A DNA stretch of 64,000 nt from a virus: IMG/VR virus record IMGVR_UViG_3300031521_000030, positions 1 through 64,000 of that record; one strand, written 5' to 3'. A program made the translations under genes and the position numbers. The notes beneath the pieces were generated by a model. It made no database searches. It worked only from the letters and a program-made list of their open reading frames with translations, and was not told the DNA's origin. This document shows positions 3,233-63,533 of the stretch, in pieces (position 1 is the first letter of the stretch; every line of letters starts with the position of its first letter).

Positions 3233-3826
3233 ATGAACCTAGAACTCCCAAAGAGCGTGGCCATGCCGAAACTCCCCCGCCGGATGCCAACTTTTAAGGA
3301 CCACACCGGCCAAACCTTTGGGATGCTGCTCGTCCTAGAATACTCCGGGGTGCACTCCAAAGGGGCTGCCTACTGGAAATGCCAATGTGTTTGTGGAACC
3401 GTTGGGTATGTGATTGGGTCGGACCTCCGGCGGGGGCATACGGATTCCTGCGGTTGTCAAAAGGCGGCCAAGGTTTCTAGGTCGCGCACAACCCATGGTG
3501 CATACCGCACGCCCGAATATAGCATTTGGTGTGGCATGATTGGCCGGTGTGAAAATAAAAAAGGGGAACGCTATTACGCTTACGGCGGTCGGGGGATTAC
3601 AGTATGCCAACGGTGGCGAACCTCCTTCGACGATTTCCTCCAAGATATGGGGCAAAGGCCACCCGGTAAATCCCTCGACCGACGAGATAACGATGGCAAT
3701 TATGAACCAGAGAATTGCCGGTGGGCCACCCCAAAAGAGCAAGCCAACAACCGAAGAAAGTATGGGACGGGTAAAAAACTGCAACATGTTGCAGTAATGG
3801 CTCGGGTAAGAACACGAAATTTATAA
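3233..3826 (+). CDS. HNH-type homing endonuclease
   Basis: GQTFGMLLV, WKCQCVCG, SCGC, YGGRGITVCQRW, SLDRRDNDGNYEPENCRWAT. Confidence 0.88.
   Translation: MNLELPKSVAMPKLPRRMPTFKDHTGQTFGMLLVLEYSGVHSKGAAYWKCQCVCGTVGYVIGSDLRRGHTDSCGCQKAAKVSRSRTTHGAYRTPEYSIWCGMIGRCENKKGERYYAYGGRGITVCQRWRTSFDDFLQDMGQRPPGKSLDRRDNDGNYEPENCRWATPKEQANNRRKYGTGKKLQHVAVMARVRTRNL
3780..3793. repeat. 14-bp palindrome, site 1
   Basis: TGCAACATGTTGCA, in HNH CDS. Confidence 0.9.
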
Positions 3827-4398
3827 TATGAGTAAGCCACCCGACAAGAAGGACATCCCCAGCCTATCAGGCCCGACCGGCAAGTTGCCAAAGGGTTGGG
3901 GCACCAAGGAAGTCCAAAACGGCACCCACACGCTAACCATTGTCACCTCCCCCGGAAACTTTGAATGGCAGGTCGGCAAGCTGGCCCGCAACCGTGGCCG
4001 GATGCAGTTTTCGCCTTGGAATTTCAAGGGCTCGCCGGTAAGCATTGTTGCCCGGCCATGAGCGCACCCATATTTGAACGGGCGGCCCGCGATGCCATTA
4101 TTGCCCGCTATGCTGGAATCCTCCTTTCGCACGGGGTTGGTGGCTGCACTTTGCTCCACCTTGTCCATAAGCACGCCGACGAATACATCGTCGATGCCCT
4201 GCAATGGGCGGCCTATGAGCACCTCGTTATCAATGGCACGGGGGAAGGCCCCGAACCTTTAGGGTTAGGCTTCCTCGCCCCCAAGCGGAAGGAGATGCCC
4301 TACCTTCCATCAACCCAGAATACGGCGAAGCCATGGGAGTCCCAAGGCCATGTCCCTTTCTACCGCAATTTCTCAAAAACCAGCCGAAAGCACCGCAG

Positions 4399-5412
4399 AT
4401 GAACGAAGCCCCTTTACGCGAATTGCTTGGCGAATTAAATGTCGATGTCGTCCAGACGAACGCCAACGGATGGCTCCTTGCATTCTGTCCCTTTGCCGAA
4501 TGGCTCCATAACAGTGGCCAAGACCGCAACCCCGATTTTTATGTCCGCGTGGAGCCCACGGGAATTTCCGGGTTCCACTGTTTCGCATGCAAAACCCACG
4601 GGCGCATGTCAACCCTCGTCCGCAAGTTGGAGTATTACCGGCAGGAAAAATACCGGGGGCTGGCCGTCAAAGCCGACCTCATGGAAACCCCGGACGAGTT
4701 CCCACCCTATGAGCACGACTCGGCAATCCAAGTGGAGCCGGACCCGCTCAATAAAGCGGCCTACCTTGGGATGTATCCCTTGGCATGGGAGGATGAGTGG
4801 AGCCGCAAATACCTCGCCGGGCGGGGCGTTGGCAAGGCAACCGCTGAACTCCTTGGCCTCGTCTATGACGATGACGAATGCCGCATCCTCTTCCCCGTCC
4901 TCAACCACAAGAGCGACCTATTTGGGTTCACCGGACGCACCATATTAGAGAAGCACCAATTCCCCTTCCCCCGCTACCCCAAGGTCCGAGATTACGCGGG
5001 GTTGCCAAAGGAGAGGCTCATCCTTGGAGAGCAGTTAATTGAAAAGGGCAAGCCCTTGCTCTTGGTGGAGGGGCTCTTTGCCTTGGCCCACATGATTGAG
5101 ATTGGTGCGCGGGAGTTTTGCAACCCGGTGGCCACCATGGGCTCAAACATGAGCAAATACCAACGGGACATCCTCATAAGCTACAACGCCCCCATCCACC
5201 TCCTTTATGACAATGATGAGGCGGGGGAGCTTGGCTTATTTGGCCCAATGAATGCGGAAGGGGAACGCATGGGCGGGGGCGCATGGGATAAGGTCCATGA
5301 GCATGTCCCAACCTTCCTGCCGCTCTACCCCGAGGGTATCAACGACCCGGACAACCTAACAACCGAGATGCTGCAAGAGATGCTCTTTTCGGATGATAGC
5401 CTTGCCAATTAA
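4399..5412 (+). CDS. DNA primase (zinc-binding domain + TOPRIM)
   Basis: CPF..H...CFAC zinc finger, ILFPV, LVEGLF, YDNDEAG, DPD. Confidence 0.88.
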   Translation: MNEAPLRELLGELNVDVVQTNANGWLLAFCPFAEWLHNSGQDRNPDFYVRVEPTGISGFHCFACKTHGRMSTLVRKLEYYRQEKYRGLAVKADLMETPDEFPPYEHDSAIQVEPDPLNKAAYLGMYPLAWEDEWSRKYLAGRGVGKATAELLGLVYDDDECRILFPVLNHKSDLFGFTGRTILEKHQFPFPRYPKVRDYAGLPKERLILGEQLIEKGKPLLLVEGLFALAHMIEIGAREFCNPVATMGSNMSKYQRDILISYNAPIHLLYDNDEAGELGLFGPMNAEGERMGGGAWDKVHEHVPTFLPLYPEGINDPDNLTTEMLQEMLFSDDSLAN

Positions 5413-5430
5413 AGGGTTAAACCATAGCAT
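5402..5430 (+). promoter_or_regulatory. Conserved phage promoter
   Basis: TTGCCA-17-TAGCAT. Confidence 0.8.
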
Positions 5431-5439
5431 CCCAGCCCT

Positions 5440-6922: not shown

Positions 6923-8413
6923 ATGACAACCTCGCCTTACAGATGTTCGCTTGAGTCCATGATTTGGCTGCCTATTGGGTGGTTCAACAGGGGGCTCGCC
7001 GATGACTTGATGGCGAGGTTGACCATTATGCCGAAGGAGTTCAGCACATTCCGACCACCCGCCAAGGAAGACACCGATGGCGAGGAAGAGGAAGACACGG
7101 GGCCTCAACCGATCAAAACCTACGTCCTTGACCGGGCGCGGGGGGCGGTTGGGGTCCCAATTCACTTCGGCCTTGAGTGGCTCAAGCGGTGCAACAAGTT
7201 GCAGTATTTGGACTATGGCACCTGCAATGGCCGCTCTATCACCGTCACCCAATTCCCAAGCCCCTACCACCCCAAGGTCAAGGAGCCCGCCAAGCAAGCG
7301 AAGTTCATGGAGGACATCCTCCGGGAGTTGCCTATGCGCGGGACCATGCTCGCCGAGGCCGACACGGGCACAGGCAAGACCGTAGTTGCCCTCAACACCA
7401 TTGGACGGCTCGGGCGCTCTGCTTTGGTTATCGTCCCCTCCAAGCGGCTTGTGAAGCAATGGAAGGAGGAGGCAACATTGCACCTCGGTTTGCCCCCGGA
7501 CGCCATAGGCACCGTCATGTCCGGGAAGGCCAAATATAAAGGCAAGGCAATCACGATTTGCCTCGTCCACAATTTGAAGCCGGGCAAGTGGCCCGCTGAT
7601 TTTTATGAGAGCTTTGGGACGGTCGTATGGGATGAGGCCCATAGGCTAGGAGCCCGCTCATTCGCGCACAGCATGCGCCAGTTCCCCGCCAAGTATAAGC
7701 TGGCTATGACGGCAACCCCCGACCGCAAGGATGGCTGTGAGAAGTTGTTCTTGGACTACTTTGGCCCCCCGGCGGTTGCGAGTGAGGCCGAGGCGTTGGC
7801 TTGCGATTGCTTTGTCCTCAACTACCGCCGCAAGCGCAAAAAACTGCCGGGCACCCTTGGCCTGTCAACCATGCTCTCCCTCATTGCATTGGACTCGGAT
7901 AGGAACAAGATGATTGTGGGGGATGTCATTTGCCCCCTCTATGAGCAAGGCCGCTACACGCTGGTTATTGGCGACCGGGTTGGCCACCTCCAAGCCCTTA
8001 TGGTCATGTGCATCCAAGCGGGCATCCCGGAGGAGGACCTCGGCCTATTCGTCTCGGCCTATGAAACCGAGTCATTGGAGGAGCAACCAAACGGCAAAAC
8101 GAAGAAGGTCATTCGCAAGGTTGCCTTTAAGGACGAGCATTTGGACCATGTAAAAGCCCATGCAACCATCATATTCGCCACGTATGGCATGATGAAGGAA
8201 GGAATAGACATTCCTCGTCTTGACTCCGGGGTTGATGTGACCCCAAGATCAGAGGGTGAGCAAGTCATTGGACGAATCCGACGCCCATACCCGGACAAGC
8301 CCCGCCCCGTTTGGTTTACCATCCGGGACATTGGGAACGCCAAAATGGTGCGATCCTGCGCTTCCCGGTTGGGGGATTACGGCCAATGCAATGTAACAAT
8401 CATCGACCAGTAA
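6923..8413 (+). CDS. Superfamily 2 DEAH helicase
   Basis: DTGTGKT, WDEAH, TATP, EGIDIP, QVIGRIRR. Confidence 0.92.
   Translation: MTTSPYRCSLESMIWLPIGWFNRGLADDLMARLTIMPKEFSTFRPPAKEDTDGEEEEDTGPQPIKTYVLDRARGAVGVPIHFGLEWLKRCNKLQYLDYGTCNGRSITVTQFPSPYHPKVKEPAKQAKFMEDILRELPMRGTMLAEADTGTGKTVVALNTIGRLGRSALVIVPSKRLVKQWKEEATLHLGLPPDAIGTVMSGKAKYKGKAITICLVHNLKPGKWPADFYESFGTVVWDEAHRLGARSFAHSMRQFPAKYKLAMTATPDRKDGCEKLFLDYFGPPAVASEAEALACDCFVLNYRRKRKKLPGTLGLSTMLSLIALDSDRNKMIVGDVICPLYEQGRYTLVIGDRVGHLQALMVMCIQAGIPEEDLGLFVSAYETESLEEQPNGKTKKVIRKVAFKDEHLDHVKAHATIIFATYGMMKEGIDIPRLDSGVDVTPRSEGEQVIGRIRRPYPDKPRPVWFTIRDIGNAKMVRSCASRLGDYGQCNVTIIDQ
7190..7203. repeat. 14-bp palindrome, site 2
   Basis: TGCAACAAGTTGCA, in helicase CDS. 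Confidence 0.9.
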
Positions 8414-8424
8414 AATTTAAGACC

Positions 8425-8928
8425 ATGAGCACGACGCAAGACCCAAACCAGCAAGCGAAAAAGGACATCCGAAACAAGAAGCGGCGGGAGCAGTATGCTA
8501 AAGACCCCACCTACCAAAAGGAGGTCCGGGCAAGCAACCGCACCCAATACCGTGCGCGGGTTGGAGTAGCCCCTCGCTCATGTGCGGGCAACATTGCAAC
8601 CCTCGCCTCATTTGGCCAAGTCCGGGAGGTGATTCTCGGGCGCAAGAAGGAGCAGCGGCTAACCCTTACGGTGCAAGAGTTTGCAACCGCCATCGAATAC
8701 CACCGCTGGGTCCTCTACCGTTGGCACAGCCGGGGCCAGTTCCCCAAGCCAACCATCCTCCTAGAAGGGCATAAAAAAGGGGCATCCGGTTCCTACGTTT
8801 ACACCCTCCCACAAGCCACCCGGCTCATCACCACTTTGGCCGCCCACCAAGCCGCCAAGATGCACTTTCAGCAAACCGACACGGCAACAATTGAGCAACT
8901 CAATGCCGACATGAAGGGCGAAATTTAA
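8425..8928 (+). CDS. Putative winged-helix (excisionase/MerR-like) DNA-binding protein
   Basis: LTVQEFATAIEYHRWVLYRWHSRGQFPKP. Confidence 0.55.
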   Translation: MSTTQDPNQQAKKDIRNKKRREQYAKDPTYQKEVRASNRTQYRARVGVAPRSCAGNIATLASFGQVREVILGRKKEQRLTLTVQEFATAIEYHRWVLYRWHSRGQFPKPTILLEGHKKGASGSYVYTLPQATRLITTLAAHQAAKMHFQQTDTATIEQLNADMKGEI

Positions 8929-9357: not shown

Positions 9358-10707
9358 ATGACAACATCTCCCACGCCGACCATCGCCGTGCGTTCCCGTT
9401 CCCGCGCTCCGGCCACGGCCATCCATATCCCTCCCGTTGAAAAGACGGATATTATTGTCAGTGTCCCATCGGCAAACATCACCCCCGGCCAGCAAGCCAT
9501 ATTGGATGCAGCCTTTGCCAAACCCAAAGCCAAGGGCAAGGCCAAGAAGGGTGAGGCTGCCGAGCCGGTTGATGCAAAGCCGAAAACCGAGTTGGAGGCC
9601 ATCATGGGGGAAATCCGTGATAAGAAGGGGCCGAAAACAGTATTTTTAGGGACTCAATTGCCATTGTTTAATCTTGTCTCAACCGGGGCATTCACTCTCG
9701 ATCTCGCTCTATTGGGCGGGGTTAGTGAGGGCCAATGCGCAATGTTTTACGGTTGGGAGAACAGTGGAAAAACGACTATGCTCCTTCGGGTGGTTGCATC
9801 GTTGCAGCGGAAACACCCCGACAAGGTAGTTGTTTGGGTTGATGCCGAAACAACCCTCGACCGCGATTGGGCGGTTAAGCATGGCGTGGACCTGCAACGC
9901 CTTGTAATCCTCCAACCCGAAAGCGGGGAAGACGCCGTGGACATGATTAAGTCCATGCTCGATACGTGGGAGGTTTGCGGGGTTGTGGTCGATTCCATCC
10001 CCGCCCTTGTCCCCCAAAAGCAAAGCGACCGCTCGGCAGCCGACAATGCGGCCCCGGCGGAACTCGCCCGGCTCGTTGGGTTTATGTGCTCGGACATCCT
10101 CAAGTCATGGGTCAAGGAGCGCAAGCGGGGCCATTGGGTTACCGTTTTGCTGGCCAACCAGTTCCGCAGCAAGATAACGATGTTCGGTGACCCCCGCAGC
10201 ATCCCCGGCGGCAACCAGTTGAAGTATTTGGTGACAACCCGCGTGGAACTCAAAAACAAGGAGGTAGGGGCCAATGAGGCTGCCAAGGGCAAAGACGCCG
10301 ATGCAACCCAAAAGGAGGCTGCCAAGAAGGCCGCCATGGATTGCGTCTCGGTTAATGAGCATACCTTCAAAATTACGAAGGCCAAGTTGACCAGCATCCG
10401 GGCCGGGGAGTTCCAAATGGTGGTTGACCCCGAGCACCCGCTTGGCATGGGCACCTTCCTTGATGCCCCGGTCGTTGTGGCCTTTGCGAAGAAAATGGGC
10501 ATTGTCCAAGGCGGTGGGTCCAGTTGGCGGGTTGAGTGCATCGACGAGTTCGACGGCATGAAATTCGGCAACTTAGCGGCGATTTGCGATGCTCTCTACC
10601 AAGAGCCGGTGGCCTTCCTTGAGTTGAAGCGCCATATCATTGGGCTAACCCGCGAGGCGAAGGGCATGCCCTACCTCCCACCGGACAATCATTTGATCCG
10701 TTGGTAA
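9358..10707 (+). CDS. recA: RecA/UvsX-like recombinase
   Basis: STGAFTLDLAL, Walker A GWENSGKTT, VDAE, VVVDS, NQFR, PGG. Confidence 0.92.
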   Translation: MTTSPTPTIAVRSRSRAPATAIHIPPVEKTDIIVSVPSANITPGQQAILDAAFAKPKAKGKAKKGEAAEPVDAKPKTELEAIMGEIRDKKGPKTVFLGTQLPLFNLVSTGAFTLDLALLGGVSEGQCAMFYGWENSGKTTMLLRVVASLQRKHPDKVVVWVDAETTLDRDWAVKHGVDLQRLVILQPESGEDAVDMIKSMLDTWEVCGVVVDSIPALVPQKQSDRSAADNAAPAELARLVGFMCSDILKSWVKERKRGHWVTVLLANQFRSKITMFGDPRSIPGGNQLKYLVTTRVELKNKEVGANEAAKGKDADATQKEAAKKAAMDCVSVNEHTFKITKAKLTSIRAGEFQMVVDPEHPLGMGTFLDAPVVVAFAKKMGIVQGGGSSWRVECIDEFDGMKFGNLAAICDALYQEPVAFLELKRHIIGLTREAKGMPYLPPDNHLIRW

Positions 10708-10712
10708 CCGCC

Positions 10713-11135
10713 ATGCCCGAGGGCTACGACTTTGTGGCCGAGGGGACCAAAAACCCTCGGCTATGCCAAGTCCGCTACTGCCGCAACACAAGGGCCGGGG
10801 CCAATAAGGTCTGCTCGAAGTGCATGATGCGGCGGTGGCGGGAACGCTACCCGGTCAAAGCGGCCTTTTCCCAACTGAGGAACAGCGCCATGGACCGGAA
10901 GAAACCTTTTGAGCTAACCCTTGAGCAGTTTGTGGATGTGGTTGTGGGGACGGGCTATATGGAGCGCAAGGGGCATGAGGCAAACAGCCTCCATGTTGAC
11001 CGAAAGGACTCTACCAAGGGCTACGTTTATGATAACCTCCAAATCATCACAAATACTCAGAACATTACCAAAGAAAACAAGGAACGCGCAACCCGACGAG
11101 CGGGTAGGCAATTAGCCGACAACGAGCCGTTCTAG
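10713..11135 (+). CDS. Putative HNH-like endonuclease
   Basis: N-terminal Cys cluster, HVDRKDSTKGYVYDNLQII...N. Confidence 0.6.
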   Translation: MPEGYDFVAEGTKNPRLCQVRYCRNTRAGANKVCSKCMMRRWRERYPVKAAFSQLRNSAMDRKKPFELTLEQFVDVVVGTGYMERKGHEANSLHVDRKDSTKGYVYDNLQIITNTQNITKENKERATRRAGRQLADNEPF

Positions 11136-11149
11136 TGCAACATATTGCA
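11136..11149. repeat. 14-bp palindrome, site 3 (one mismatch)
   Basis: TGCAACATATTGCA, gene junction. Confidence 0.8.
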
Positions 11150-11152
11150 GCC

Positions 11153-11518
11153 ATGGGATTACGAGAACGAAAAGCCGACAAGCTCCCGAGCAACGCTCAC
11201 CGCCGGGCACCAAAGCAGGAAAAGGAATGTGCCAAGCGCATCGGGGGGACTATAACCCCAAGGAGCGGGGCCGGGGATGTCAAGGGAGATGTCCGCATAA
11301 AGGGCTACGCCCGCATTGAGTGCAAAACCACCCTCCAAAAGAGTTTCTCAATCACCCGCGAATTGGTGCGGAAAATAGAGGAGGCCGCCCTTGCATCCCA
11401 AGGAGAATTGCCCGCCTTTTGCATTGAGTTCCTCAACCCGGATGGTGAACGGGATTGTGAAATAGCCGTGGTCCCTGTCTTCGTTTTGGAGATGCTCGGC
11501 CTACAAAGAACCAGATGA
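11153..11518 (+). CDS. PD-(D/E)XK nuclease (Holliday junction resolvase-like)
   Basis: SGAG..KGDV....RIECK. Confidence 0.7.
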   Translation: MGLRERKADKLPSNAHRRAPKQEKECAKRIGGTITPRSGAGDVKGDVRIKGYARIECKTTLQKSFSITRELVRKIEEAALASQGELPAFCIEFLNPDGERDCEIAVVPVFVLEMLGLQRTR

Positions 11519-12036
11519 AACCACTTCCTATACCCGGCCATGATGGCTACTTCGCTTTTGAGGATGGACGCATAATGGGCCGTAAAGACCACCTCCTTTC
11601 GCCCCACACCAACCGGGCAACCGGCTACCAATCAGTAGGGCTTTACTTCAATGGGCAGAAGGTCTGCCGAAGGGTCAACGTGTTGGTCTGCCTTGCATTC
11701 CATGGCACCAAGCCAACCCCTCTGCACGATGCTGCCCACAACGATGGTAATAAGTTAAACAACCGAGCCGATAACCTTCGGTGGGCCACCAAGCGCGAGA
11801 ACCAAGCTGATCGGGTGGTGCATGGGACAACTTGCCGGGGTTCCCGTAATGGGTTCTCCAAGCTCACCGAACGGGCCGTTGCTACTATACGGGAAGCCTA
11901 TCGGGCAGCTTTGCATGGGCGTGCTCGGGTAGCCCCCGGATTTCGCCAAAGGTTAGCTACCCAACTTGGGGTGAATCCTAGCTGCATCTCAAAGGTAGTG
12001 GCGGGGGAATCATGGGGGGTCCGAAATGCTACTTAG
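11515..12036 (+). CDS. HNH homing endonuclease
   Basis: LVCLAFHG, AAHNDGNKLNNRADNLRWAT, C-terminal HTH. Confidence 0.88.
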   Translation: MKPLPIPGHDGYFAFEDGRIMGRKDHLLSPHTNRATGYQSVGLYFNGQKVCRRVNVLVCLAFHGTKPTPLHDAAHNDGNKLNNRADNLRWATKRENQADRVVHGTTCRGSRNGFSKLTERAVATIREAYRAALHGRARVAPGFRQRLATQLGVNPSCISKVVAGESWGVRNAT

Positions 12037-12911: not shown

Positions 12912-13499
12912 ATGAACATCGGCTTAGACCTCTCCCTTACGGAGACGGGGTGGTATTTTATCGCCCCCGGAATTGAAGAGGGGGGAGTCCTCAAACCCGG
13001 AAAACTCATGGGGGTTGAACGCCTTGCCAATTTGCGGGGCCAACTGTCGGGCCTGATAGCCCGCTGCAACAAGTTGCACCCCATTGAGCGCGTTGTCATA
13101 GAGGGCTACGCTTTCGGGGCCAAGAACAAGCGCGAGGCGATTGGGGAATGGGGTGGGGTTGCCCGCCTATGCCTCGCCGACCATAACCTTTCGGCCTATA
13201 CCGTCCAGCCAACCAGCCTCAAGCAATTCGTCACCGGCAAGGGCAACTCCCAAAAGGATGAGGTAATGCTCCAGATTTACAAGCGGTGGGGCCGGGAGTT
13301 CCGAAACAACAATATCGCCGATGCTTTCGCCTTGGCCGCCGTGGGAGTAGCCATGGGGACAAAGGGCGAATATCATGCTATCTTCCAGCAAGACCCAACG
13401 GCAATCCAAGCGACAGCCGTTGGAAAAGTTGAGCAAATCCTTAAAACAACCCCGAGAACATCGGGGATTGTCCGAGTTAGAACCCGTAATAATCCATGA
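12912..13499 (+). CDS. ruvC: RuvC-like Holliday junction resolvase
   Basis: IGLDLSLTETG, VIEGYAF, KQFVTGKGN, ADAFALA. Confidence 0.85.
   Translation: MNIGLDLSLTETGWYFIAPGIEEGGVLKPGKLMGVERLANLRGQLSGLIARCNKLHPIERVVIEGYAFGAKNKREAIGEWGGVARLCLADHNLSAYTVQPTSLKQFVTGKGNSQKDEVMLQIYKRWGREFRNNNIADAFALAAVGVAMGTKGEYHAIFQQDPTAIQATAVGKVEQILKTTPRTSGIVRVRTRNNP
13065..13078. repeat. 14-bp palindrome, site 4
   Basis: In RuvC CDS. Confidence 0.9.
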
Positions 13500-13555: not shown

Positions 13556-13561
13556 ATGTCA

Positions 13562-14851
13562 ATGCAAGCCAACGCGGCAAGCAACGCAAACCAAACAAAA
13601 CCAAATACGACAATGAGCACAAACGCATACCAGATCGGTGACCTAGCAACCTTCAAAGCATACGATGCTGAATCCCTCGGCGACAACGAACCCATCTTCC
13701 AACCCGGCCAGCGCCTCAAGTTGATTGCCGCCGGTAAAGAGGACGGCAGTTTCATTGCATGCCTAGAAACCGACGAGAAGGTGCAGGATACTTGCTTCCT
13801 CGACGAACTCGACCTCAAGCCGGTTGCCGAAGTCCCGGTTGCAACGCCAGCCGCAGCCCCGGTAGCCAAGGTTAAGAAGACCGCAGCCAAGAAGGCAGCG
13901 CCAGCCGCAGCAGCCCCCGCAGCGGTAGTTGCCGCCCCGGTCGTAGCCGCACCTGTTGTTGCAGCCCCGGTTGAAACCGCCCCCGTTGCGGTCCCGGCCA
14001 AACCCGTTCGGGCACCCAAAGCGGCCAAGACGGCGCCAGCCGCAGCAGCCCCCGCAGCGGCCCCGGCTGCAACGACTGAAACCCCTGCGGTTATTTCCGG
14101 TGACACGGAAGCGGTTCGCGCAGCATTGGCAACCAGCCATGACGCCCTCGAAGCGGCCCGCGTGTTGGTCACCCGCGCAGACGAAACCTACTTTACCCTC
14201 GGCGGGGTGTTGAACCGTATTGCCGAGCATAAGGACTACCTCACCATCACGGATGCGGGCAACGTGCCTCGCTACCAAGGGGCCACCGCCTTTGAGGATT
14301 ATGTTGAGAAGGACCTCGGGGTTAAGGCCCGCAAGGCCCGCTACCTCATTGCAATTTACAAGCATTTCTCCGTCCTCGGCTTGGACGAGAAACGCCTCAC
14401 AACCATTGGCTGGGCAAAGGCCAAGGAAATCGCCCGCGCAGGTGGCACCATCAAGGACTCCGAGTTGCTGCTCGACTTTGCAACCGGCCACAACATCGAC
14501 GACCTCAAGGCCAAGATTGAGGAAACCAGTGTTTCAGCGGGCGGGGATGGCACCGGCACAAGCGGGGCAAAAGCCAAAAAGGTGGCTTTCAAGTTCGTGT
14601 TTTTCCAAGACAAGGCCGACACCCTCCAAGCCGCCCTCGACACCGCAAAACAGGCCATTGATAGCGAAGACCCCAATGCGGCCCTCGACTATATTATGAC
14701 GGAATGGATGTCCGCACAGGCCGGGGTTGATATGCCCCTTGAGCAGATGCTCGCCTACGTCAACACCAAATACGGCGTGACGGTTGGCGAAGTGGAGGCC
14801 GACGATGTTCAGGCCGTTGAGGTTGCTGAAACCGCTACCGCCACGGCGTAA
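13562..14851 (+). CDS. Putative multi-domain DNA-binding protein with Ala/Pro/Lys-rich linker (start may be 13613)
   Basis: Own promoter; histone-H1-like linker; helical core FEDYVEKDLGVKARKARYLI; strand-helix-helix C-terminus. Confidence 0.65.
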   Translation: MQANAASNANQTKPNTTMSTNAYQIGDLATFKAYDAESLGDNEPIFQPGQRLKLIAAGKEDGSFIACLETDEKVQDTCFLDELDLKPVAEVPVATPAAAPVAKVKKTAAKKAAPAAAAPAAVVAAPVVAAPVVAAPVETAPVAVPAKPVRAPKAAKTAPAAAAPAAAPAATTETPAVISGDTEAVRAALATSHDALEAARVLVTRADETYFTLGGVLNRIAEHKDYLTITDAGNVPRYQGATAFEDYVEKDLGVKARKARYLIAIYKHFSVLGLDEKRLTTIGWAKAKEIARAGGTIKDSELLLDFATGHNIDDLKAKIEETSVSAGGDGTGTSGAKAKKVAFKFVFFQDKADTLQAALDTAKQAIDSEDPNAALDYIMTEWMSAQAGVDMPLEQMLAYVNTKYGVTVGEVEADDVQAVEVAETATATA

Positions 14852-15928: not shown

Positions 15929-15942
15929 TGCAACAAGTTGCA
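15929..15942. repeat. 14-bp palindrome, site 5
   Basis: Just downstream of a promoter. Confidence 0.9.
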
Positions 15943-17035: not shown

Positions 17036-18007
17036 GTGAATACGCCCGTCCGAACACGAACTCGCATCGCGCCAACCACGCCACCCCCCGCACCGGCACC
17101 TCATGCCCTCGCGGTCATTGATGGCAAAGTGAGCGTCTATTGCGCCCACACCTCCCTCCAACCTATTGAGGGGGTCATACCCAACCCGCGCAACCCAAAC
17201 GGGCACCCGGACAAGCAGATTGAATTGCTGGCCAAGATCATTCTCGCGCAGGGTTGGCGTAACCCGGTTGTCGTATCCAACCGCAGCGGATTTGTCATCA
17301 AGGGTCATGGCCGGTTAGCGGCGGCCCGGAAGTTGGGCCTAACCCAAGTCCCCGTCGATTTCCAAGACTATATCAACGAGGCGAGCGAATGGGCGGACAT
17401 GGTTGCGGACAACCGCATCGCTGAACTTAGTTCCATGGATGAGGGGGACCTCTCCGGGTTGTTCAGTGAAATCCACGATAATTTTCCAGCCTTCGACATG
17501 GAGTTGACCGGCTTTACGGAGGAGGAGTTGCCTACCTTCAACCCGGTTGACCCGGCACCCTCCGGGGGGAGCACCCCAACCGATGCAGAAACCACCGTCG
17601 CCCTCACAACCCTTGCCTCCCGCTTTGGTGTGCCACCTTTCTCGGTGCTGGACGCCCGGCAGGGCTATTGGCAAGACCGGAAGCGCACATGGTTGTCCAT
17701 TGGCATCAGGTCGGAACTCGGACGGGGGGAGGCCCTCCTTTCCGGTGGTTCTGATGGGTTCCATTTGGGTGGTAACTATGCGGGCGGTGCGGCCCCGGCG
17801 GGTGCATCGAAAACGGGGGCCTTGCTATTCGGCGGCGGGGCACAAGCGGGCCTCAACAAGTTGATGAAGGACAAGAGCCGTGGGCGCAAGGCCAACGCAA
17901 CGGTATGCGGGAGCCCGCTACCAGCAACGAATTACAAGAAGTCCCGCGCACGCGGAACGGGCACCGGCAAGGCAATCCCCGGCACGGCGGCCAAGTCAGC
18001 CGCCTAA
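17036..18007 (+). CDS. ParB/Srx-like N-terminal domain protein
   Basis: PNPRNPNGH, GWRNPVVV, GHGRLAAA, ADNRIAEL. Confidence 0.85.
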   Translation: MNTPVRTRTRIAPTTPPPAPAPHALAVIDGKVSVYCAHTSLQPIEGVIPNPRNPNGHPDKQIELLAKIILAQGWRNPVVVSNRSGFVIKGHGRLAAARKLGLTQVPVDFQDYINEASEWADMVADNRIAELSSMDEGDLSGLFSEIHDNFPAFDMELTGFTEEELPTFNPVDPAPSGGSTPTDAETTVALTTLASRFGVPPFSVLDARQGYWQDRKRTWLSIGIRSELGRGEALLSGGSDGFHLGGNYAGGAAPAGASKTGALLFGGGAQAGLNKLMKDKSRGRKANATVCGSPLPATNYKKSRARGTGTGKAIPGTAAKSAA

Positions 18008-18301: not shown

Positions 18302-19801
18302 ATGAGCGAACAACCAGAAGTGCAACAAGTTGCACCCGCAGAAAGCAACAAGGGCCGTCTGACATGGGTGGCCGGGGATAAACCCGTCGAATCACTGGAC
18401 CCGGTTAGCCAAAAGATTCTGGCGGCCAGCGCCGATGGGATGAATGGCACAAGCATCTTTGACCCGGTGCTTTGTGAACTCTCTTACCGTTGGTATTGCC
18501 CGCCGGGCGGCAAGGTCCTTGATTGCTTTGCGGGGGGCAGCGTTCGCGGCATTGTTGCTGGCGTGCTTGGCTACCAATACACCGGGGTCGATCTCCGGGA
18601 GGACCAAGTTGCGGCAAACACCCAACAGGCCGAAGAGATTTTCAACCGACTGGCCAGCCTCCCAAGTGTGGACGCCATCCAAAACACAAGTGGTTTGCGG
18701 GAAGTAAGGATCAGTTCGGCTATGGCCCGGCTTCCTTTCAATGGGTGTGATCCCGAGTATATCCGCACAACCTGCCACGCCTCATGCTGCCAAAGCAGCA
18801 CAAGCCCAACGGGCACAATCATTACCGTCCACCCAACGGAGGAACCCGCCATTGCTGCTCGGGGCGGTGTGGTTTTGGCCGGTTTGCTGCAACCCCGCGC
18901 TGGGGAGAAGAGGTGCCCCTTTAAGAACGAGGTGAACCTTTGTGGAATCCACTTCACACCCGATAAACCCTTTGGCTGCATCGCCTCCCCGTTCACACTC
19001 AACTCCAATGGAACCCTTATCGTAAGGAACCGTTACAAGTCCCTGAAATGCTACAACCAAGGCCCACAACTTCCGGCCTATGTTGCCTTCCGGGCATCCC
19101 TTGACCTCATCTTTGGGGCCACCGAATCAGCCCGGATTTGCGAGCATTTGGAAGCTGGCGGGGGGGACCTCACCGCCTATGTCAGCGATGCCAACTATGC
19201 AAAACTGGTGGATAATGATGCCATCAAGCACGGCGTTGTTCCGGGCTCCCAACCCGCCCCACAAAAGGGCACGCAACCCCCCGCTGTCATCCCTCATTGG
19301 GTTGCTGGGGATAGTTTGAATATCGAAACGGTTGCACCGGGGGAATACGACTTCCTCTTTAGCTGCCCGCCCTATGCGGACCTCGAAGTTTATAGCGAAG
19401 ATGCAAGGGACCTGAGTGCCATTGCAGCGGAGAACTATGATGCCTTCCGGGTTGCCTATAAGGGCATCATCGCGGCCAGTTGCCGGATGCTCAAGCCGGA
19501 CTCCTTTGCATGCTTTGTCATTGGGGAAGTCCGACGCAAGGACGGCTCCTACTACAACTTTGTGGGTGATACGGTCAATGCCTTTGTGGAGGCCGGGCTA
19601 TCCTATTACAACGAGTCCATCCTTGTTACTTCACTCGGCTCCTTGCCGGTGCGGGCGGGGCGGCAGTTTGCCGGGGGCCGGAAGATCGGCAAGACCCACC
19701 AAAACGTCCTCGTCTTCTTGAAAGGCGATTGGCACCGGGCGGTTGCAAAACTTGGCAGCGATTGCCAATTTGGCGAGATGCCCGCCGGAGCAGAGATTTA
19801 A
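18302..19801 (+). CDS. DNA amino-methyltransferase (N6A/N4C) with inserted Cys-rich domain
   Basis: SIFDPVLCE, motif I DCFAGGS, motif IV SCPPY. Confidence 0.85.
   Translation: MSEQPEVQQVAPAESNKGRLTWVAGDKPVESLDPVSQKILAASADGMNGTSIFDPVLCELSYRWYCPPGGKVLDCFAGGSVRGIVAGVLGYQYTGVDLREDQVAANTQQAEEIFNRLASLPSVDAIQNTSGLREVRISSAMARLPFNGCDPEYIRTTCHASCCQSSTSPTGTIITVHPTEEPAIAARGGVVLAGLLQPRAGEKRCPFKNEVNLCGIHFTPDKPFGCIASPFTLNSNGTLIVRNRYKSLKCYNQGPQLPAYVAFRASLDLIFGATESARICEHLEAGGGDLTAYVSDANYAKLVDNDAIKHGVVPGSQPAPQKGTQPPAVIPHWVAGDSLNIETVAPGEYDFLFSCPPYADLEVYSEDARDLSAIAAENYDAFRVAYKGIIAASCRMLKPDSFACFVIGEVRRKDGSYYNFVGDTVNAFVEAGLSYYNESILVTSLGSLPVRAGRQFAGGRKIGKTHQNVLVFLKGDWHRAVAKLGSDCQFGEMPAGAEI
18321..18334. repeat. 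14-bp palindrome, site 6
   Basis: In methyltransferase CDS. Confidence 0.9.
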
Positions 19802-21947: not shown

Positions 21948-21961
21948 TGCAACAAGTTGCA
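21948..21961. repeat. 14-bp palindrome, site 7
   Basis: Directly after the terL stop. Confidence 0.9.
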
Positions 21962-24119: not shown

Positions 24120-24133
24120 TGCAACAAGTTGCA
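24120..24133. repeat. 14-bp palindrome, site 8
   Basis: Intergenic. Confidence 0.9.
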
Positions 24134-27262: not shown

Positions 27263-27276
27263 TGCAACAAGTTGCA
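27263..27276. repeat. 14-bp palindrome, site 9
   Basis: In CDS. Confidence 0.9.
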
Positions 27277-37176: not shown

Positions 37177-37190
37177 TGCAACTTGTTGCA
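37177..37190. repeat. 14-bp palindrome, site 13
   Basis: In CDS. Confidence 0.9.
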
Positions 37191-37878: not shown

Positions 37879-37892
37879 TGCAACATGTTGCA
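37879..37892. repeat. 14-bp palindrome, site 14
   Basis: TGCAACATGTTGCA, gene junction. Confidence 0.9.
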
Positions 37893-40028: not shown

Positions 40029-40042
40029 TGCAACTTGTTGCA
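40029..40042. repeat. 14-bp palindrome, site 15
   Basis: Upstream of a promoter. Confidence 0.9.
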
Positions 40043-43106: not shown

Positions 43107-43120
43107 TGCAACAAGTTGCA
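43107..43120. repeat. 14-bp palindrome, site 16
   Basis: Just downstream of a promoter. Confidence 0.9.
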
Positions 43121-46842: not shown

Positions 46843-46856
46843 TGCAACTTGTTGCA
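46843..46856. repeat. 14-bp palindrome, site 17
   Basis: Intergenic. Confidence 0.9.
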
Positions 46857-49937: not shown

Positions 49938-49951
49938 TGCAACAAGTTGCA
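49938..49951. repeat. 14-bp palindrome, site 18
   Basis: Upstream of thyA. Confidence 0.9.
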
Positions 49952-51304: not shown

Positions 51305-51607
51305 ATGAAGCCAACCAAAAAGCCAGTCAAGAAGGCCAACGACAAGCACTACCGTTTTTACTACCGGGGCTTGAGGATTGACCCATACCGCATCATGCGG
51401 ATTTACCGCAACATCCGGGACCCTGAGCATCAGCATGCCGTCAAAAAGTTGCTGCGGGCCGGGGAGTCGGATGCCAAAGGTTTGGAGCAGGACATTGATG
51501 AGGTGATTATGTCCCTCAACTGCTGGAAGAAAAACTTGGCCGAGGATGCCAAGGATGCGGCGCGGGCCGCCCGGTTGGCCAAACCAAAGACCCAAGCAGC
51601 GGCATGA
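51305..51607 (+). CDS. Conserved phage protein (DUF3310-like)
   Basis: IDPYRI...HAVKKLLRAG...QDI. Confidence 0.5.
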   Translation: MKPTKKPVKKANDKHYRFYYRGLRIDPYRIMRIYRNIRDPEHQHAVKKLLRAGESDAKGLEQDIDEVIMSLNCWKKNLAEDAKDAARAARLAKPKTQAAA

Positions 51608-52797
51608 GCGAAGCACCCGACGACTCCGACGACATTGTTGCCCACACCGATGGGTCCGGCAACACCACCTCATCCCATGCGGGCTGGGCCTTTAACATTG
51701 TCCACGCGGGCCGCATCATTTGCCGCTTCGGCTTCCGGGCCGGGGCAAGCAATAACGAGGCGGAACTCACGGCGGTTGTCCGGGTGCTTCAATTCGTCCG
51801 GCCCTCCAAACACCCGCTTGTCATCTACACCGACAGCGAATACGTGCGGGGGGCCGCCAACGAGTGGTGCGACAATTGGGAGCGCCAAGGTTGGATGACA
51901 GGGACGGGCAAGCCGGTGAGCAACGTGGAACTCATGCAGGAAATGATGAAGCTCCTTCGCTGGCAACGATCCTTCCGGCGGGTTACCATCCATTGGGTGC
52001 GCGGCCATGATGGCAACAAGCACAACGAGATGGCCGATGCCGTCGCTAAGTCAGCCCGTCTATCGCAGACGACCAATTGGCTTGTGCCAACGCACCTCCC
52101 CGCATGGGCTAACCCGGTTCTCATGCAACAGGCCAACCCAACCATCAAAGCCATTACAGCAAGGGTGAGGCGTCGTATCGGGCCGCCCCCGGAGCCCAAT
52201 GCAAGGGAGACAATCATCTCTCCCTGCGGCAAATACCGCTACATCCTTTGGCGGGAATGGGACCCGAGCAAACCCCATGCGGTCTTCGTGGGCCTCAACC
52301 CTTCGACGGCAGACGGGGAAAAGGACGATGCCACCATTAGACGGTGCGTGGCCTTCGCCAAGCGGTGGGGCTACGGTGCGCTTTGCATGGTCAACCTCTT
52401 TGCCTTCCGGGCAACCCTCCCCGGCCACATGCTCGCGGCAGAGGAGCCCATTGGGTTGGACAACGACAAGTGGTTGCTCCAAGCGGTTGAGGGCGCGGGC
52501 GTTGTGGTTGCCGCTTGGGGGCCGCCGGGCGTCCACATGAAGCGGGACCGGGCAGTTATGCAGTTGCTAGAGGGCAAGCTATCCTCCCTCCAACTTAGCA
52601 AGCACGGATTCCCCGGCCACCCCCTCTACCTAAAGGCTGACCTCACCCCGGTCCCCTTTAACCCGCTGCAACAAGTTGCAGAGAATTGCCCCAATTGCGG
52701 TGCCCAATCCATAGGGGGCATCTGCCAAAACTACGGGTGCGAGGGTGATTTCCATGGAAGGAACACCATTGGCGGGGCAAGCGTCCTTTCTGTTTGA
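51604..52797 (+). CDS. Ribonuclease HI fused to a DUF1643 domain
   Basis: TDGS, SNNEAEL, TDSEY, WVRGH, NEMAD; then CGKYRY.L.R.W, LNPSTAD, D.TIRR, HPLY. Confidence 0.85.
   Translation: MSEAPDDSDDIVAHTDGSGNTTSSHAGWAFNIVHAGRIICRFGFRAGASNNEAELTAVVRVLQFVRPSKHPLVIYTDSEYVRGAANEWCDNWERQGWMTGTGKPVSNVELMQEMMKLLRWQRSFRRVTIHWVRGHDGNKHNEMADAVAKSARLSQTTNWLVPTHLPAWANPVLMQQANPTIKAITARVRRRIGPPPEPNARETIISPCGKYRYILWREWDPSKPHAVFVGLNPSTADGEKDDATIRRCVAFAKRWGYGALCMVNLFAFRATLPGHMLAAEEPIGLDNDKWLLQAVEGAGVVVAAWGPPGVHMKRDRAVMQLLEGKLSSLQLSKHGFPGHPLYLKADLTPVPFNPLQQVAENCPNCGAQSIGGICQNYGCEGDFHGRNTIGGASVLSV
52667..52680. repeat. 14-bp palindrome, site 19
   Basis: In CDS. Confidence 0.9.
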
Positions 52798-55457: not shown

Positions 55458-56141
55458 ATGTTCAAACTACCCCTTCGCCGTAGGAAAAAGCTCTGTGGAA
55501 GACACTCCCTTGTTGATTTGGCTGATTTGGGTATAATCCTCAATACGGCTACAAATTGGGCTCTGTCTGACCATGGTTACGCCGTGGCCACAATAGGGAC
55601 CCGCATGCTTTACCTGCACCGTCTATTGATGGGGGACATCGTTGAGGGAAAACAGGTTGACCACATCAATGGGGACAAGCTGGACAACCGCCGGGAGAAT
55701 CTTCGGGTATGCACGGCAAGGGAAAACCAAGCCAACACGGCCAAGCAAGCCCGCCCAACCTACTCAAAGTTCAAGGGGGTTTGCCAATCGGCGGGCCATT
55801 GGCGGGCATATATTGCAACATCGGATAAGCAGACCCACCTTGGCAGCTTTGCAACCGAAGGGGAGGCGGCCTATGCCTACAACCTTGCTGCCATAGAACG
55901 CTTCGGAGCATTTGCAAAATTAAACGATGTTCCCGAGGTTCCTCTCAACCGCCTCGACAATAGGCAACCGGGGGCAACCGGCTTCAAAGGGGTAAAGGCA
56001 CGCACAAATGGGACGTTCATTGCGCGTGCTAAAGTTAAGGGCAAGGAGGTTCATATTGGGACATTCCCAACCGCAGAGGGGGCAAGCAGAGCCCGCGCCC
56101 GCTACATTGGCCGGACAACATTGGTCCCCTTCACAACCTAA
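55458..56141 (+). CDS. HNH-AP2 homing endonuclease
   Basis: VDHINGDKLDNRRENLR, SKFKGV, HLGSF..AA.AYN; second AP2 repeat. Confidence 0.9.
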   Translation: MFKLPLRRRKKLCGRHSLVDLADLGIILNTATNWALSDHGYAVATIGTRMLYLHRLLMGDIVEGKQVDHINGDKLDNRRENLRVCTARENQANTAKQARPTYSKFKGVCQSAGHWRAYIATSDKQTHLGSFATEGEAAYAYNLAAIERFGAFAKLNDVPEVPLNRLDNRQPGATGFKGVKARTNGTFIARAKVKGKEVHIGTFPTAEGASRARARYIGRTTLVPFTT

Positions 56142-56145: not shown

Positions 56146-56159
56146 TGCAACAAGTTGCA
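56146..56159. repeat. 14-bp palindrome, site 20
   Basis: Between two HNH genes. Confidence 0.9.
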
Positions 56160-59741: not shown

Positions 59742-59763
59742 GCCATAGGGCAAGACCACTCAT

Positions 59764-59791
59764 GCCCCTTCCCTTTAACCGGGGGAGGGGC
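59764..59791 (+). terminator. GC-rich hairpin after the capsid gene
   Basis: GCCCCTTCCC / GGGGGAGGGGC stem; weak U tract. Confidence 0.45.
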
Positions 59792-59826
59792 CTTCAACCA
59801 AAGCAGCACGCAACTCATTTATTTTT

Positions 59827-60111
59827 ATGGCCGAAGACATTGCATCCACCGACGAAACCCCCGCCCCCAAAGTGGCTGGGCTCACCGCAACCCTCGTCTA
59901 CGGGGAAACCTACTACCTTGGTAACAAACGCTTCGAGGTCAAAAAGCCCGTATCCGTTACCGAAGCAGAGGCCGCAGCCCTCAAGCCGAAGGTTGTCTCG
60001 CGCACCATCATTGATGGGGACAAGCGGGACTCCATTGACACCCCTCGCTTCAAAATCGAAGGGTCTGCCCCGGCGGCCCCTCGCGCACGCGCCCCTCGCG
60101 CAACCGCCTAA
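59827..60111 (+). CDS. Small virion-associated hypothetical protein
   Basis: ORF between capsid and connector genes. Confidence 0.65.
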   Translation: MAEDIASTDETPAPKVAGLTATLVYGETYYLGNKRFEVKKPVSVTEAEAAALKPKVVSRTIIDGDKRDSIDTPRFKIEGSAPAAPRARAPRATA

Positions 60112-60115
60112 TCGC

Positions 60116-60129
60116 TGCAACTTGTTGCA
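60116..60129. repeat. 14-bp palindrome, site 21
   Basis: Intergenic, head region. Confidence 0.9.
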
Positions 60130-60142
60130 CCACTCATAACCT

Positions 60143-61283: not shown

Positions 61284-61286
61284 GCC

Positions 61287-61739: not shown

Positions 61740-61741
61740 CC

Positions 61742-62563
61742 ATGATCTCCCTTTCCGAAATCGTTAAGCGCGTCCGGGTAACCTGCCCATCCTTTGCCCG
61801 CCGGGTTGGGGGGACGGCTGAGTTCTCCGAAGCATCAAAGGACGAGACTTCCGACCTTCCTTTGCCGCATGCTTTTGTGATTCCCATGTTTGGTGAGGAC
61901 ATGGGCCAACTTTCCCCCAACCCGGAGGTGGCATCCGAAAAGGTCAAAGAGTTCTACGCAGTTGTCGTTTGCATTGATAACCGGGTGAACCGGGCGGGGG
62001 CGGTCGGCCTATCCAAACTTGATCCCTTGGAGCAACTGGTTGCCATCCAAAAGGAACTCCGCAAAGCGTTCATCGGTTGGCGCATGGTCCCCCAATATGA
62101 CCCCGTTCGGTATTCGCGGGATGCCCACCTTGGCATGGACAACAAGAGGATGTGGCACCAATGGGAGTGGTCCATGCAAGCTATTGAGCAACCTGATGCC
62201 ACCGATGCAAGTTATGCCGAAGTCTCCGATTTCGTTAATGAGTTGTCCAGTGATAGCATGCCTTTGAGTGGACCAAGCAATGGGCTCAGAACCATCCATG
62301 TCAATGGCAGCGAAACCGGGGCAACCGGCGGGTCCAGCTACGATGATCTTTGGCCACAAACGGACCCACCAACTGAACCATCCGAGGAGGCGTTGGTTGC
62401 CGCCCGGTTGCGTGCCGACTTCTCTCTCCCCGTTTCCCTATTGGACCCAGCGCCCCCTAGCCCCGAAGAAATTGGGGGGGCCATCACCAAGGCACCGGAC
62501 TATGTTTCACCCGATGAGGCGGGCCGCCTGATTGTTGATTCCAAGGAGGGGGCCACGGTATGA
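61742..62563 (+). CDS. Tail terminator / completion protein
   Basis: CPSFARRVGG.AEF, LPHAFVIP; synteny. Confidence 0.7.
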   Translation: MISLSEIVKRVRVTCPSFARRVGGTAEFSEASKDETSDLPLPHAFVIPMFGEDMGQLSPNPEVASEKVKEFYAVVVCIDNRVNRAGAVGLSKLDPLEQLVAIQKELRKAFIGWRMVPQYDPVRYSRDAHLGMDNKRMWHQWEWSMQAIEQPDATDASYAEVSDFVNELSSDSMPLSGPSNGLRTIHVNGSETGATGGSSYDDLWPQTDPPTEPSEEALVAARLRADFSLPVSLLDPAPPSPEEIGGAITKAPDYVSPDEAGRLIVDSKEGATV

Positions 62564-63519
62564 GTTCCGGGCGTGGCCAAGCAAACGTGGGGGGAACCCA
62601 GCACACCAAATGGGACACCGCCGAACTGGCCTCCCGGATAGAGAACCTTATCCGCGTGGGCCGCATCCATGAGGTTGACTACACGGCCAAAAAGGCTCGG
62701 GTAATCTTTGGCAAGGAAGGGGAGTCAACCGCCTTTGTCACGGACTGGCTTTCGTGGGCATCCTTGCGGGCGGGCAACAACCGGAAGTGGTCCCCACCGG
62801 AAAAGGGCGAGCAATATGCTGTCTTTGCCCCAAGTGGCCATCTGGAGAATGGGTTTGTCGGGCTGGCTATTGGCAGCGGCAACTACCCGCTCCTTGCCGA
62901 CTCCCCGGACTATGAGATGGAGGACTTCCGAAAGGATATGGACTCCGAACAAGATGGTTATTACGAATACAACCGGGCAACCGGGGTGCGTCGTTGGGTC
63001 CTCAAAGCCGGGGGTTGCTACCGTTGGGAGGTTGGAGCAGATGCAAATATCATCATGGATGGCACCCATATCCAACTCCGGGTGGGGGAAACCCAATTGG
63101 TGGTTACCAAAGATGGTATCAACCTCCATGTCCAAGGCACGGCAACCGAGTTGAAACTCTCCAAAGATTCCATTGTGGCCCACGTTGCCAATGCCGGGGT
63201 GCTTCAAATCCTCAAGGACAAGGTGGTTGCTGCCGTCAATGGGGCTAGTTTGCTCCGCATAACCGCACAGCGGGTTGTAGCGGCGGTGGCGGGGGCAATC
63301 ATGGACCTTGGCCAAAGCAAGGCAACGCTCTCCGGGGGGGCAAGCTCCTTGGAACTAGCAACCACCGCAACCCTTACCACCCCATCCTTCTCCGGCATGC
63401 AAGGCGGGGCAACCGTGGCCTCCGAGCAAGAACAAGCACCGGCAGCCGAAACCCCGCACGAAACCTTGGTCGCACCGGAGCCCCCAAAAGGCGGGGCACC
63501 CTATCGGCCATCCAAGTAG
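62560..63519 (+). CDS. Baseplate spike protein (P2 gpV-like)
   Basis: IENLIRVG, TDWLSW..RAG...WSPP.KGEQ. Confidence 0.88.
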   Translation: MSSGRGQANVGGTQHTKWDTAELASRIENLIRVGRIHEVDYTAKKARVIFGKEGESTAFVTDWLSWASLRAGNNRKWSPPEKGEQYAVFAPSGHLENGFVGLAIGSGNYPLLADSPDYEMEDFRKDMDSEQDGYYEYNRATGVRRWVLKAGGCYRWEVGADANIIMDGTHIQLRVGETQLVVTKDGINLHVQGTATELKLSKDSIVAHVANAGVLQILKDKVVAAVNGASLLRITAQRVVAAVAGAIMDLGQSKATLSGGASSLELATTATLTTPSFSGMQGGATVASEQEQAPAAETPHETLVAPEPPKGGAPYRPSK

Positions 63520-63533
63520 TGCAACAAGTTGCA
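63520..63533. repeat. 14-bp palindrome, site 22
   Basis: Between gpV and PAAR genes. Confidence 0.9.

Follow-up and report, generated by a model that had tools for sequence, protein, structure and literature searches.

What might a phage gain from repeating one short palindrome, at nearly regular intervals, around the whole of its chromosome? The question is raised by IMG/VR record IMGVR_UViG_3300031521_000030, a viral contig of 97,128 bp whose first 64 kb constitute the window analysed here and which, as a whole phage genome, is referred to as G0. The two contig ends share an exact overlap of 126 bp (2-127 and 97003-97128), so the assembly is circular with a length of ~97.0 kb, and all of its genes lie on the + strand. 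Within the window the palindrome TGCAACWWGTTGCA has 21 exact matches, compared with a mean of 0.00 and a maximum of 0 in dinucleotide-preserving shuffles, and the complete genome holds 29 exact copies with a WW (A or T) centre and one with a TG centre, where 0 are expected. The array is likely a docking lattice that acts at the level of the DNA itself, with a ParB-like flavour.

Even spacing of an invariant palindrome

Counting an imperfect copy at 11136, the sites divide the window into 21 gaps of 702-3970 bp, 19 of which fall between 1.9 and 4.0 kb, exactly as an initial annotation of this DNA had reported. Its further statement that no gap exceeds 4 kb is true of the window but not of the remaining genome, where gaps reach 5.1 kb, and 7.1 kb over the contig join (DnaB-PolA). 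The same annotation had proposed comparing gap variance with random placement, and here the regularity is pronounced: the coefficient of variation (CV) of the gaps is 0.35 for the linear and 0.41 for the circular genome against ~0.96 under the null, and spacing as even as that of G0 arose in 0 of 20,000 uniform placements and in 0 of 50,000 placements on the 141 gene junctions or on a mixture of junctions and free positions (P<2e-5 for the uniform and the junction-restricted null alike). Both short gaps (the minimum being 702 bp) and long gaps are missing. Significantly even spacing recurs in 9 of 11 related genomes, G0 included, namely in phages L338C (CV 0.60, P <5e-5), JP1 (CV 0.55, P about 1e-4) and Summit (CV 0.47, P <5e-5), and in five further IMG/VR genomes of ~95 kb (CV 0.49-0.69, P <5e-5 to 0.004) that span 47-62% GC and lack nucleotide similarity to one another.

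The full site reads YRS-TGCAAC-WW-GTTGCA-SYR, a perfect palindrome over 14 bp that grows to 16-20 bp with its flanks; the centre is AA in 17 copies of G0, TT in 10, AT in 2 and TG in 1, and the arms are invariant inside each genome. Of the 22 copies originally listed, 21 are exact, while that at 11136-11149, on the junction of open reading frames (ORFs) 10701-11135 and 11135-11518, carries one mismatch (TGCAACATATTGCA); a copy at 35320-35333, already described as degenerate, has two. The annotation had also noted partly conserved flanks and was partly right: CGC precedes nine sites in G0 and [CG]TAAA follows six, and the base that adjoins an arm is without exception C or G (40 C and 18 G among 58 half-sites), followed by R and then by Y. 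Its estimate of some nine copies within coding sequences in different frames agrees with the ~8-10 window sites that we place inside ORFs, including the helicase and RuvC genes, where all frames are used and the palindrome is translated, for example, as LQQVA or CNKL. Its argument that the constraint is on the DNA is borne out by the invariance of the arms, by this use of all frames and by the comparison of L338C with RHph_I4 given below.

Gene junctions and other non-coding DNA hold ~18-20 of 31 sites, typically 1-6 nt past a stop codon, and a stop triplet lies within 12 nt upstream of 19 of 29 sites, where 8 would be expected. Exact sites of this kind are found 6 nt past the stop at 29696 (29702-29715), 82 nt past the stop at 37095 and before ATG 37206 (37177-37190), 6 nt past a stop and 21 nt before ATG 46877 (46843-46856), 22 nt before ATG 49973 in non-coding DNA (49938-49951), 5 nt past the stop at 56141 (56146-56159, intergenic) and 1 nt past the stop at 63519 (63520-63533). 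An AT-centred exact copy at 37879-37892 begins 1 nt past a stop and has ATG 37885 in its very centre, and the intergenic exact copy at 24120-24133 follows a G+C hairpin and ends 8 nt before ATG 24141. Other exact copies are written into genes, as at 7190-7203 in the helicase gene (6923-8413), 13065-13078 in the RuvC gene (12912-13499), 27263-27276 in ORF 27073-27579 and 52667-52680 in ORF 51604-52797 (RNase H-like), or lie close to gene ends, where the stop codon follows the AT-centred copy at 3780-3793 by 33 nt (ORF 3233-3826), the copy at 33300-33313 by 42 nt (ORF 32897-33355) and that at 60116-60129 by 10 nt (ORF 59762-60139). One more exact copy, 18321-18334, occupies codons 7-11 after ATG 18302 in the methyltransferase half of a split ParB-methyltransferase gene.

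Conservation and change of the half-site among related phages

G0 has no nucleotide similarity to deposited phages, and in its capsid protein it shares 46-52% identity with six cultured phages: HJ05 of Aeromonas, vB_RleS_L338C and RHph_I4 of Rhizobium, JP1 of Agrobacterium, and Summit and DLP5 of Stenotrophomonas. Copies of TGCAAC-NN-GTTGCA number 47 in L338C, 45 in RHph_I4, 16 in HJ05 and 0 in JP1; JP1 carries 33 copies of TGCAAA-NN-TTTGCA and Summit 27-31 of TGCAAT-NN-ATTGCA, position 6 of the half-site thus changing symmetrically between lineages as C, A or T. IMG/VR relatives extend the repertoire to half-sites TGCAAC, TGCAAT, TGAAAT, TGACAT and TGCAGA, in some cases with a 1-nt spacer, and in all the array with its co-varying specificity, a palindrome of 14-16 bp roughly every 3 kb in a large group of related phages of 80-120 kb, is kept in at least 11 complete genomes and ~60 further contigs. 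Where two genomes are close enough to be aligned, as are L338C and RHph_I4 (~79% identical over 76% of the genome), RHph_I4 retains 24 of the 24 L338C sites that can be aligned with their flanks; the arms are 100% conserved and the flanks 77%, and the two central bases vary freely. The arms of the palindrome are therefore under purifying selection. At deeper divergence the positions of sites turn over, as the initial annotation had suggested asking of relatives, and their density stays constant. Phages of the closely related hosts Rhizobium and Agrobacterium have different half-sites, yet those of the unrelated hosts Rhizobium and Aeromonas have the same one; the reader must therefore, on the distribution of these words, be encoded by the phages themselves.

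Some further observations concern the distribution and composition of the array. Two near-identical 34-kb contigs of 42% GC (3300022602_000258 and 3300025403_000028) contain TGCAACWWGTTGCA eight times each, and the genes that they share with G0 are limited to those for a terminase, an HNH protein and a distantly related helicase. In some genomes a central dinucleotide of CA or TG shows a strand bias (CA 29 vs TG 3 in genome G006, CA 9 vs TG 0 in JP1, TG 8 vs CA 1 in HJ05), which could reflect mutational asymmetry of a CG centre or hint at strand-specific use. The tail sheath gene of G0 lies at genome positions 78707-80266 within a tail module common only to the Aeromonas phage HJ05, and the head and replication modules are common to phages recorded as siphoviruses (by the name codes vB_RleS and vB_SmaS, and in the DLP3/DLP5 papers); the lattice travels with the head and replication modules and not with the tail type.

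A full-text search with the palindrome word TGCAACAAGTTGCA or eight variants returned no relevant paper, searches on SIO-2, L338C and DLP5 turned up no reference to the repeat, the DLP3 paper is silent on it, and we found no paper describing a genome-wide, even palindrome array in phages of this group.

Candidate readers of the palindrome

The best candidate reader is the 431-residue product of the gene at 13556-14851 (+), a family kept in six of six compared genomes and encoded at 79 IMG/VR loci, most of which have the palindrome family at 0.3-0.5 per kb, ~10 times chance. In its AlphaFold model an SH3/Tudor/KOW-like beta barrel at residues 30-81, with a predicted local distance difference test (pLDDT) score of more than 90, is followed by a disordered linker at 90-177 in which A, P and K abound, by a confidently modelled helical domain at 185-325 that resembles ParB/KorB-type DNA-binding domains, and by C-terminal helices. 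When the whole protein was searched with Foldseek only the SH3-like domain was matched, and the helical domain was consequently folded and searched alone. Its full-domain structural matches are confined to DNA-binding domains of the ParB superfamily and the Raf1 alpha-domain, with ParB-parS at Z 8.4 (root-mean-square deviation, rmsd, 5.5 over 123 aligned residues), Spo0J at Z 8.1 (rmsd 3.1, 101 aligned), the KorB-operator complex at Z 6.4 (107 aligned) and SopB, VirB and P1 ParB at Z 4.6-5.2, of which SopB and VirB account for 5.0-5.2. For this domain Foldseek places ParB and Noc at the head of its list with weak E-values of 0.3-2, and neighbours in the ESM Atlas include ParB helix-turn-helix (HTH), DUF3102 and plasmid-partition clusters. 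The protein is moreover predicted to form a symmetric homodimer (ipSAE 0.75 vs 0.00 for the best control; contacts agreeing by at least 91%; pLDDT 76), the same mark being attained for 20 of 30 solved pairs and 1 of 23 single chains, and this modelled dimer supports self-binding. No other core gene has a site just upstream as often as the 13556-family gene, which has one in 5 of 6 genomes; among IMG/VR loci the figure is 19 of 74.

By sequence the protein is nearly silent: Pfam, PDB sequence profiles and PHROGs give nothing beyond a family of unknown function. The initial annotation had drawn parallels with ParB-like systems, and the predicted fold agrees with that comparison, but the N-terminal CTPase domain of ParB is absent from the model, its place being taken by the SH3-like barrel, so a sliding CTP clamp is not indicated.

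A second candidate, also conserved, is the HTH_17/MerR-like protein encoded just after the helicase gene at 8425-8928 (+), the Summit counterpart of which is annotated as a MerR HTH regulator; it could alternatively read the conserved spacer box of the early promoters. Both HTH families are kept in the six compared genomes, within the replication and recombination operon. Phylogenetic profiling, with both families universal, does not separate them, nor does either recognition helix track the half-site cleanly, and a single-protein scan of bacterial genomes found no relative. The only ParB_N domain in the window belongs to the protein of 17036-18007 (+), which together with methyltransferase ORF 18284-19801 matches the N- and C-terminal parts of one family, phrog_498; the ParB-methyltransferase gene therefore appears to be split by ~280 nt with an 85-codon ORF, and the palindrome at 18321 falls at the start of its second half. 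As a part of that split gene, the 17036-18007 protein is probably not the reader.

Several observations weigh against the 13556 protein, or against a lattice selected for evenness. In G0 itself its gene has no site just upstream. Its putative recognition helix (RKA[RM]YL[IM]xIY) is near-invariant while half-sites vary at positions 3, 5 and 6, and a simple specificity switch is therefore not what the family shows. Z-scores of 6-9 are moderate for a helical domain, and Pfam finds no ParB HTH in it. The 8425-8928 family is just as universal and its helix far more variable, loosely tracking position 6 (Y with C or A, R/K with T, HJ05 being an exception). The contigs of 42% GC carry the palindrome and neither candidate gene, these contigs being only ~55% complete. 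Finally, evenness is weak in RHph_I4 (CV 0.76, P 0.03-0.04) and not significant in HJ05 (CV 0.76).

What the lattice might do

Some of the sites stand beside promoters. The early promoters of G0, ~18 copies at 2665-48767 in the window and at genome position 88550, are of host type and consist of TTGCCAAT-[GT]A, a conserved GGTTAA spacer box and then TAGGTT, with the ATG ~7-8 nt after the -10, a distance so short that the mRNAs are taken to be leaderless. One flanked by a site lies at 36074-36102 (+; TTGCCAAT..GGTTAA..TAGGTT, leaderless), and a box of the same kind, TTGACAAAGGATCGGTT, is present in L338C and RHph_I4. Sites occur near 7 of the 18 promoters in G0, for which the original figure of about six sites near a promoter was about right. 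Five stand 8-26 nt upstream of the -35, including four at 8-16 nt: the exact copies at 36052-36065 (8 nt from the -35 at 36074), 40029-40042 (15 nt from that at 40058) and 21948-21961 (16 nt from that at 21978, and 1 nt past the terminase stop), and the degenerate copy at 35320 (8 nt from that at 35342). Two, both exact, lie between the -10 and the start codon, at 15929-15942 (promoter at 15890, ATG 15949) and in non-coding DNA just downstream of the -10 at 43107-43120 (promoter at 43068). In the Rhizobium phages the palindrome precedes the -35 by 8, 9, 11 or 12 nt at 12 of 26 early boxes of L338C and by 8-12 nt at 13 of 24 of RHph_I4. Roughly a quarter of the sites are thus positioned relative to RNA polymerase and the majority are not.

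With about half of the early promoters in L338C and RHph_I4 arranged in this way, operators or transcriptional roadblocks, which the initial annotation had treated as a mere alternative, become a serious rival by virtue of that fixed geometry. Under this explanation, the main rival, which we regard as possible if rather unlikely, a phage repressor would shut early promoters and stop read-through, acting as the immunity repressor of a plasmid-prophage or in an early-to-late switch, and even spacing would limit stray transcripts to a few kb. The strong preference of the sites for junctions, directly after stops and, in many cases, canonical terminators, is in keeping with such a role, as are the reports that the Delepquintavirus relatives DLP3 and DLP5 are temperate and that DLP5 was recovered as a phagemid (PMC7326821). 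Yet ~70% of sites are near no recognisable promoter, 11 of the 18 early promoters of G0 have no site, the late region has sites and no early-type promoter, and 10 of 14 sites in annotated Summit DNA lie inside coding sequences. Among ~80 G0 proteins scanned, a scan that was not exhaustive, there was no lysogeny gene, and no integrase, ParA, classical repressor or RNA polymerase. Parallels for dispersed operators exist in KorB and in the stoperators of phage L5 and the C1 operators of P1, the latter two comprising 20-30 repressor sites over 50-95 kb that lie mostly in short intergenic gaps and silence the prophage. Those sites are asymmetric, stoperators being oriented with transcription, and are read by classical immunity repressors, whereas the site of G0 is a perfect palindrome and carries no direction. 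As for location, G0 and L338C prefer junctions, most of the annotated Summit sites lie in coding sequences, and temperate growth is reported only for DLP3/DLP5. Nor does gene-specific control alone predict that short and long gaps should both be missing.

Recombination or replication offers another reading, in which a protein of the recombination operon would recruit machinery at intervals to phage-specific, orientation-independent, Chi-like hot spots. It draws on the position of the 13556 family, which closes the replication and recombination operon in six of six genomes (RecA-like, resolvase-like, Cas4-like exonuclease, RuvC, then 13556) and on the ends of homology blocks between L338C and RHph_I4, 16 of 64 of which lie within 60 nt of a site against 3.2 expected under uniform and 6.4 +/- 2.3 under junction-restricted placement (P=4e-4), an excess by which the sites mark mosaic joints between these two phages. 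Deletions between dyad repeats are also seen in Cluster O mycobacteriophages (PMC4351075). The coincidence with joints could, however, arise as a by-product where microhomologies of 14-20 bp are perfectly conserved and where a cassette brings along its own site and promoter, an identical 14-mer can itself bias the ends of BLAST alignments, and no nuclease is linked to the sites; we consider hot spots a distinctly unlikely explanation. Less probable still is an RNA element, a short hairpin that would work as a terminator, a processing site or a translational element. Sites are indeed transcribed, since all genes are on one strand, and many fall between a stop and the next start, but a hairpin of only 5-7 bp is weak (-3 to -8 kcal/mol, z -2.3 to 0.0) and has neither the stable G+C-rich stem nor the T-run of an intrinsic terminator, separate canonical terminators often precede the site, the arms never vary in a compensatory manner within a genome, copies that lie in genes or ahead of -35 boxes would be unsuited to such a role, and no Rfam family matches. 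It is just as implausible that a host factor reads the sites or that they are targets of restriction-modification or methylation, notwithstanding TGCA ends that resemble common methylase or restriction words and a ParB-methyltransferase encoded by the phage: the half-site differs between phages of close hosts and is common to those of unrelated hosts over 42-62% GC, a restriction target would be avoided rather than conserved, and methylase words are shorter, with no even spacing to be expected of them. Sigma-54 promoters, integration host factor (IHF) sites and T5-like nick sites do not fit in spacing or symmetry.

Enrichment, evenness, invariant arms, the fold and predicted dimer of the candidate, the sites upstream of its gene and its co-occurrence with the array together favour docking. 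On balance we think it somewhat more likely than not that a phage-encoded dimer, probably of the 13556 product, docks on the palindromes, with even coverage as the selected property and a local effect at some early promoters. A symmetric dimer of a phage HTH protein would dock with high affinity on the double-stranded palindrome; its reader would most likely be the 13556-14851 protein, in which the ParB/KorB-type domain would be joined to the SH3-like domain by a ~90-residue, histone-H1-like linker rich in A, P and K. Selection would keep about one site per 2-3 kb round the whole chromosome, placing sites in intergenic gaps where possible and otherwise writing them into codons. Bound dimers would then label the whole phage genome or give it a scaffold, instead of controlling individual genes, and where sites stand at a fixed distance from early promoters the same protein could modulate early transcription, in a mode resembling that of KorB on RK2, with its proximal and remote sites, only without a sliding clamp. 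That the 13556 protein binds these sites, and that the outcome is organisation and tethering or else silencing, is what we infer. More conjectural are the roles that the initial annotation had envisaged for a dimeric protein, which might coat or compact the genome or pace its injection or packaging. A broader and more tentative proposal, which we would not yet call probable, is that a large clade of 80-120 kb phages of Proteobacteria, myoviruses and siphoviruses alike, maintains a 'chromatin' lattice in which a ParB-type HTH protein that has shed its CTPase clamp and acquired a histone-H1-like tail and an SH3-like adaptor nucleates at even palindromes 2-3 kb apart and organises, tethers or insulates the replicating genome, the specificities of site and reader diversifying in the manner of incompatibility groups.

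Among known systems, the nearest published parallel is a dyad repeat of 17 bp in Cluster O mycobacteriophages, TGTTCGG-N3-CCGAACA, present in 34 copies with no known function, from which its authors inferred a dimeric binding protein and between copies of which recombination was seen (PMC4351075). Those repeats exceed 30 copies, as against 29-30 sites in G0, and likewise have invariant arms and a variable centre and lie both between and within genes, mostly away from promoters; ~40% are intergenic and the others near gene starts or in genes (PMC4351075). The likeness is one of kind only, sequence, phage lineage and host phylum being unrelated; the reader there is sought among three unnamed DNA-binding proteins, and even spacing was not part of that study. 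Apart from that case, genome-wide arrays of binding sites have been described from plasmids and chromosomes, through KorB, ParB and Noc. The IncP plasmid RK2 has about a dozen OB sites, which are not known to be spaced evenly. KorB acts from OB operators directly upstream of the -35 and also from remote ones (PMC11790492), and resembles the system proposed for G0 in its palindromic site of 13-14 bp, its dimer with a ParB-type HTH and its standing as one global regulator per replicon. It differs in possessing an N-terminal CTPase clamp that slides up to 1.5 kb, a domain that the 13556 protein lacks, and in its partners KorA and IncC, neither of which was found among the ~80 G0 proteins scanned. 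Dispersed or clustered palindromes of 12-16 bp through which one protein organises a chromosome are shared with ParB-parS, Noc-NBS, SlmA and MatP, and the DNA-binding fold of ParB and Noc matches that predicted for the 13556 protein. The 14-bp palindrome falls within the 13-16 bp range of the ParB/KorB/Noc family, but the defining CTP-binding domain (GERRxR box), which is needed for spreading, is missing from the candidate, and parS sites cluster near the origin. We know of no example of ParB-parS, Noc-NBS, SlmA or MatP from a lytic-type phage genome or with an even lattice of 2-3 kb.

Dispersed palindromes had thus been noted once in phages, in Cluster O, without explanation. Selection for even spacing, lineage-specific specificity and, as a candidate, a clamp-less reader are features not previously described, and the arrays of this group combine measurable selection for even coverage with a concrete, testable candidate reader, several members being cultured phages (L338C, RHph_I4, HJ05, JP1, DLP3, DLP5 and Summit). 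At stake is whether phages organise or silence their chromosomes by means of a clamp-less relative of ParB; the sites at mosaic joints also bear on the exchange of modules among these phages.

The gene content of G0 provides the setting. Replication genes encode PolA, a DnaG-like primase, the DnaB helicase and an SF2 helicase, and are accompanied by genes for a RecA-like protein, a Cas4-like exonuclease, RuvC and several HNH endonucleases, as well as by the split ParB-methyltransferase gene. Among the structural genes are those of a T4-type terminase, portal, HK97-like capsid, tail sheath and tape measure. Free-standing HNH genes lie at 11515-12036 and 55458-56141 in the window, with one more outside it, and the product of 55458-56141 resembles the HNH protein of the 42% GC contigs. 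The large terminase (20313-21947) has no counterpart in five cultured relatives, which have a different terminase, and is 28% identical to that of the same 42% GC contigs, a pattern in the sequences that suggests module exchange.

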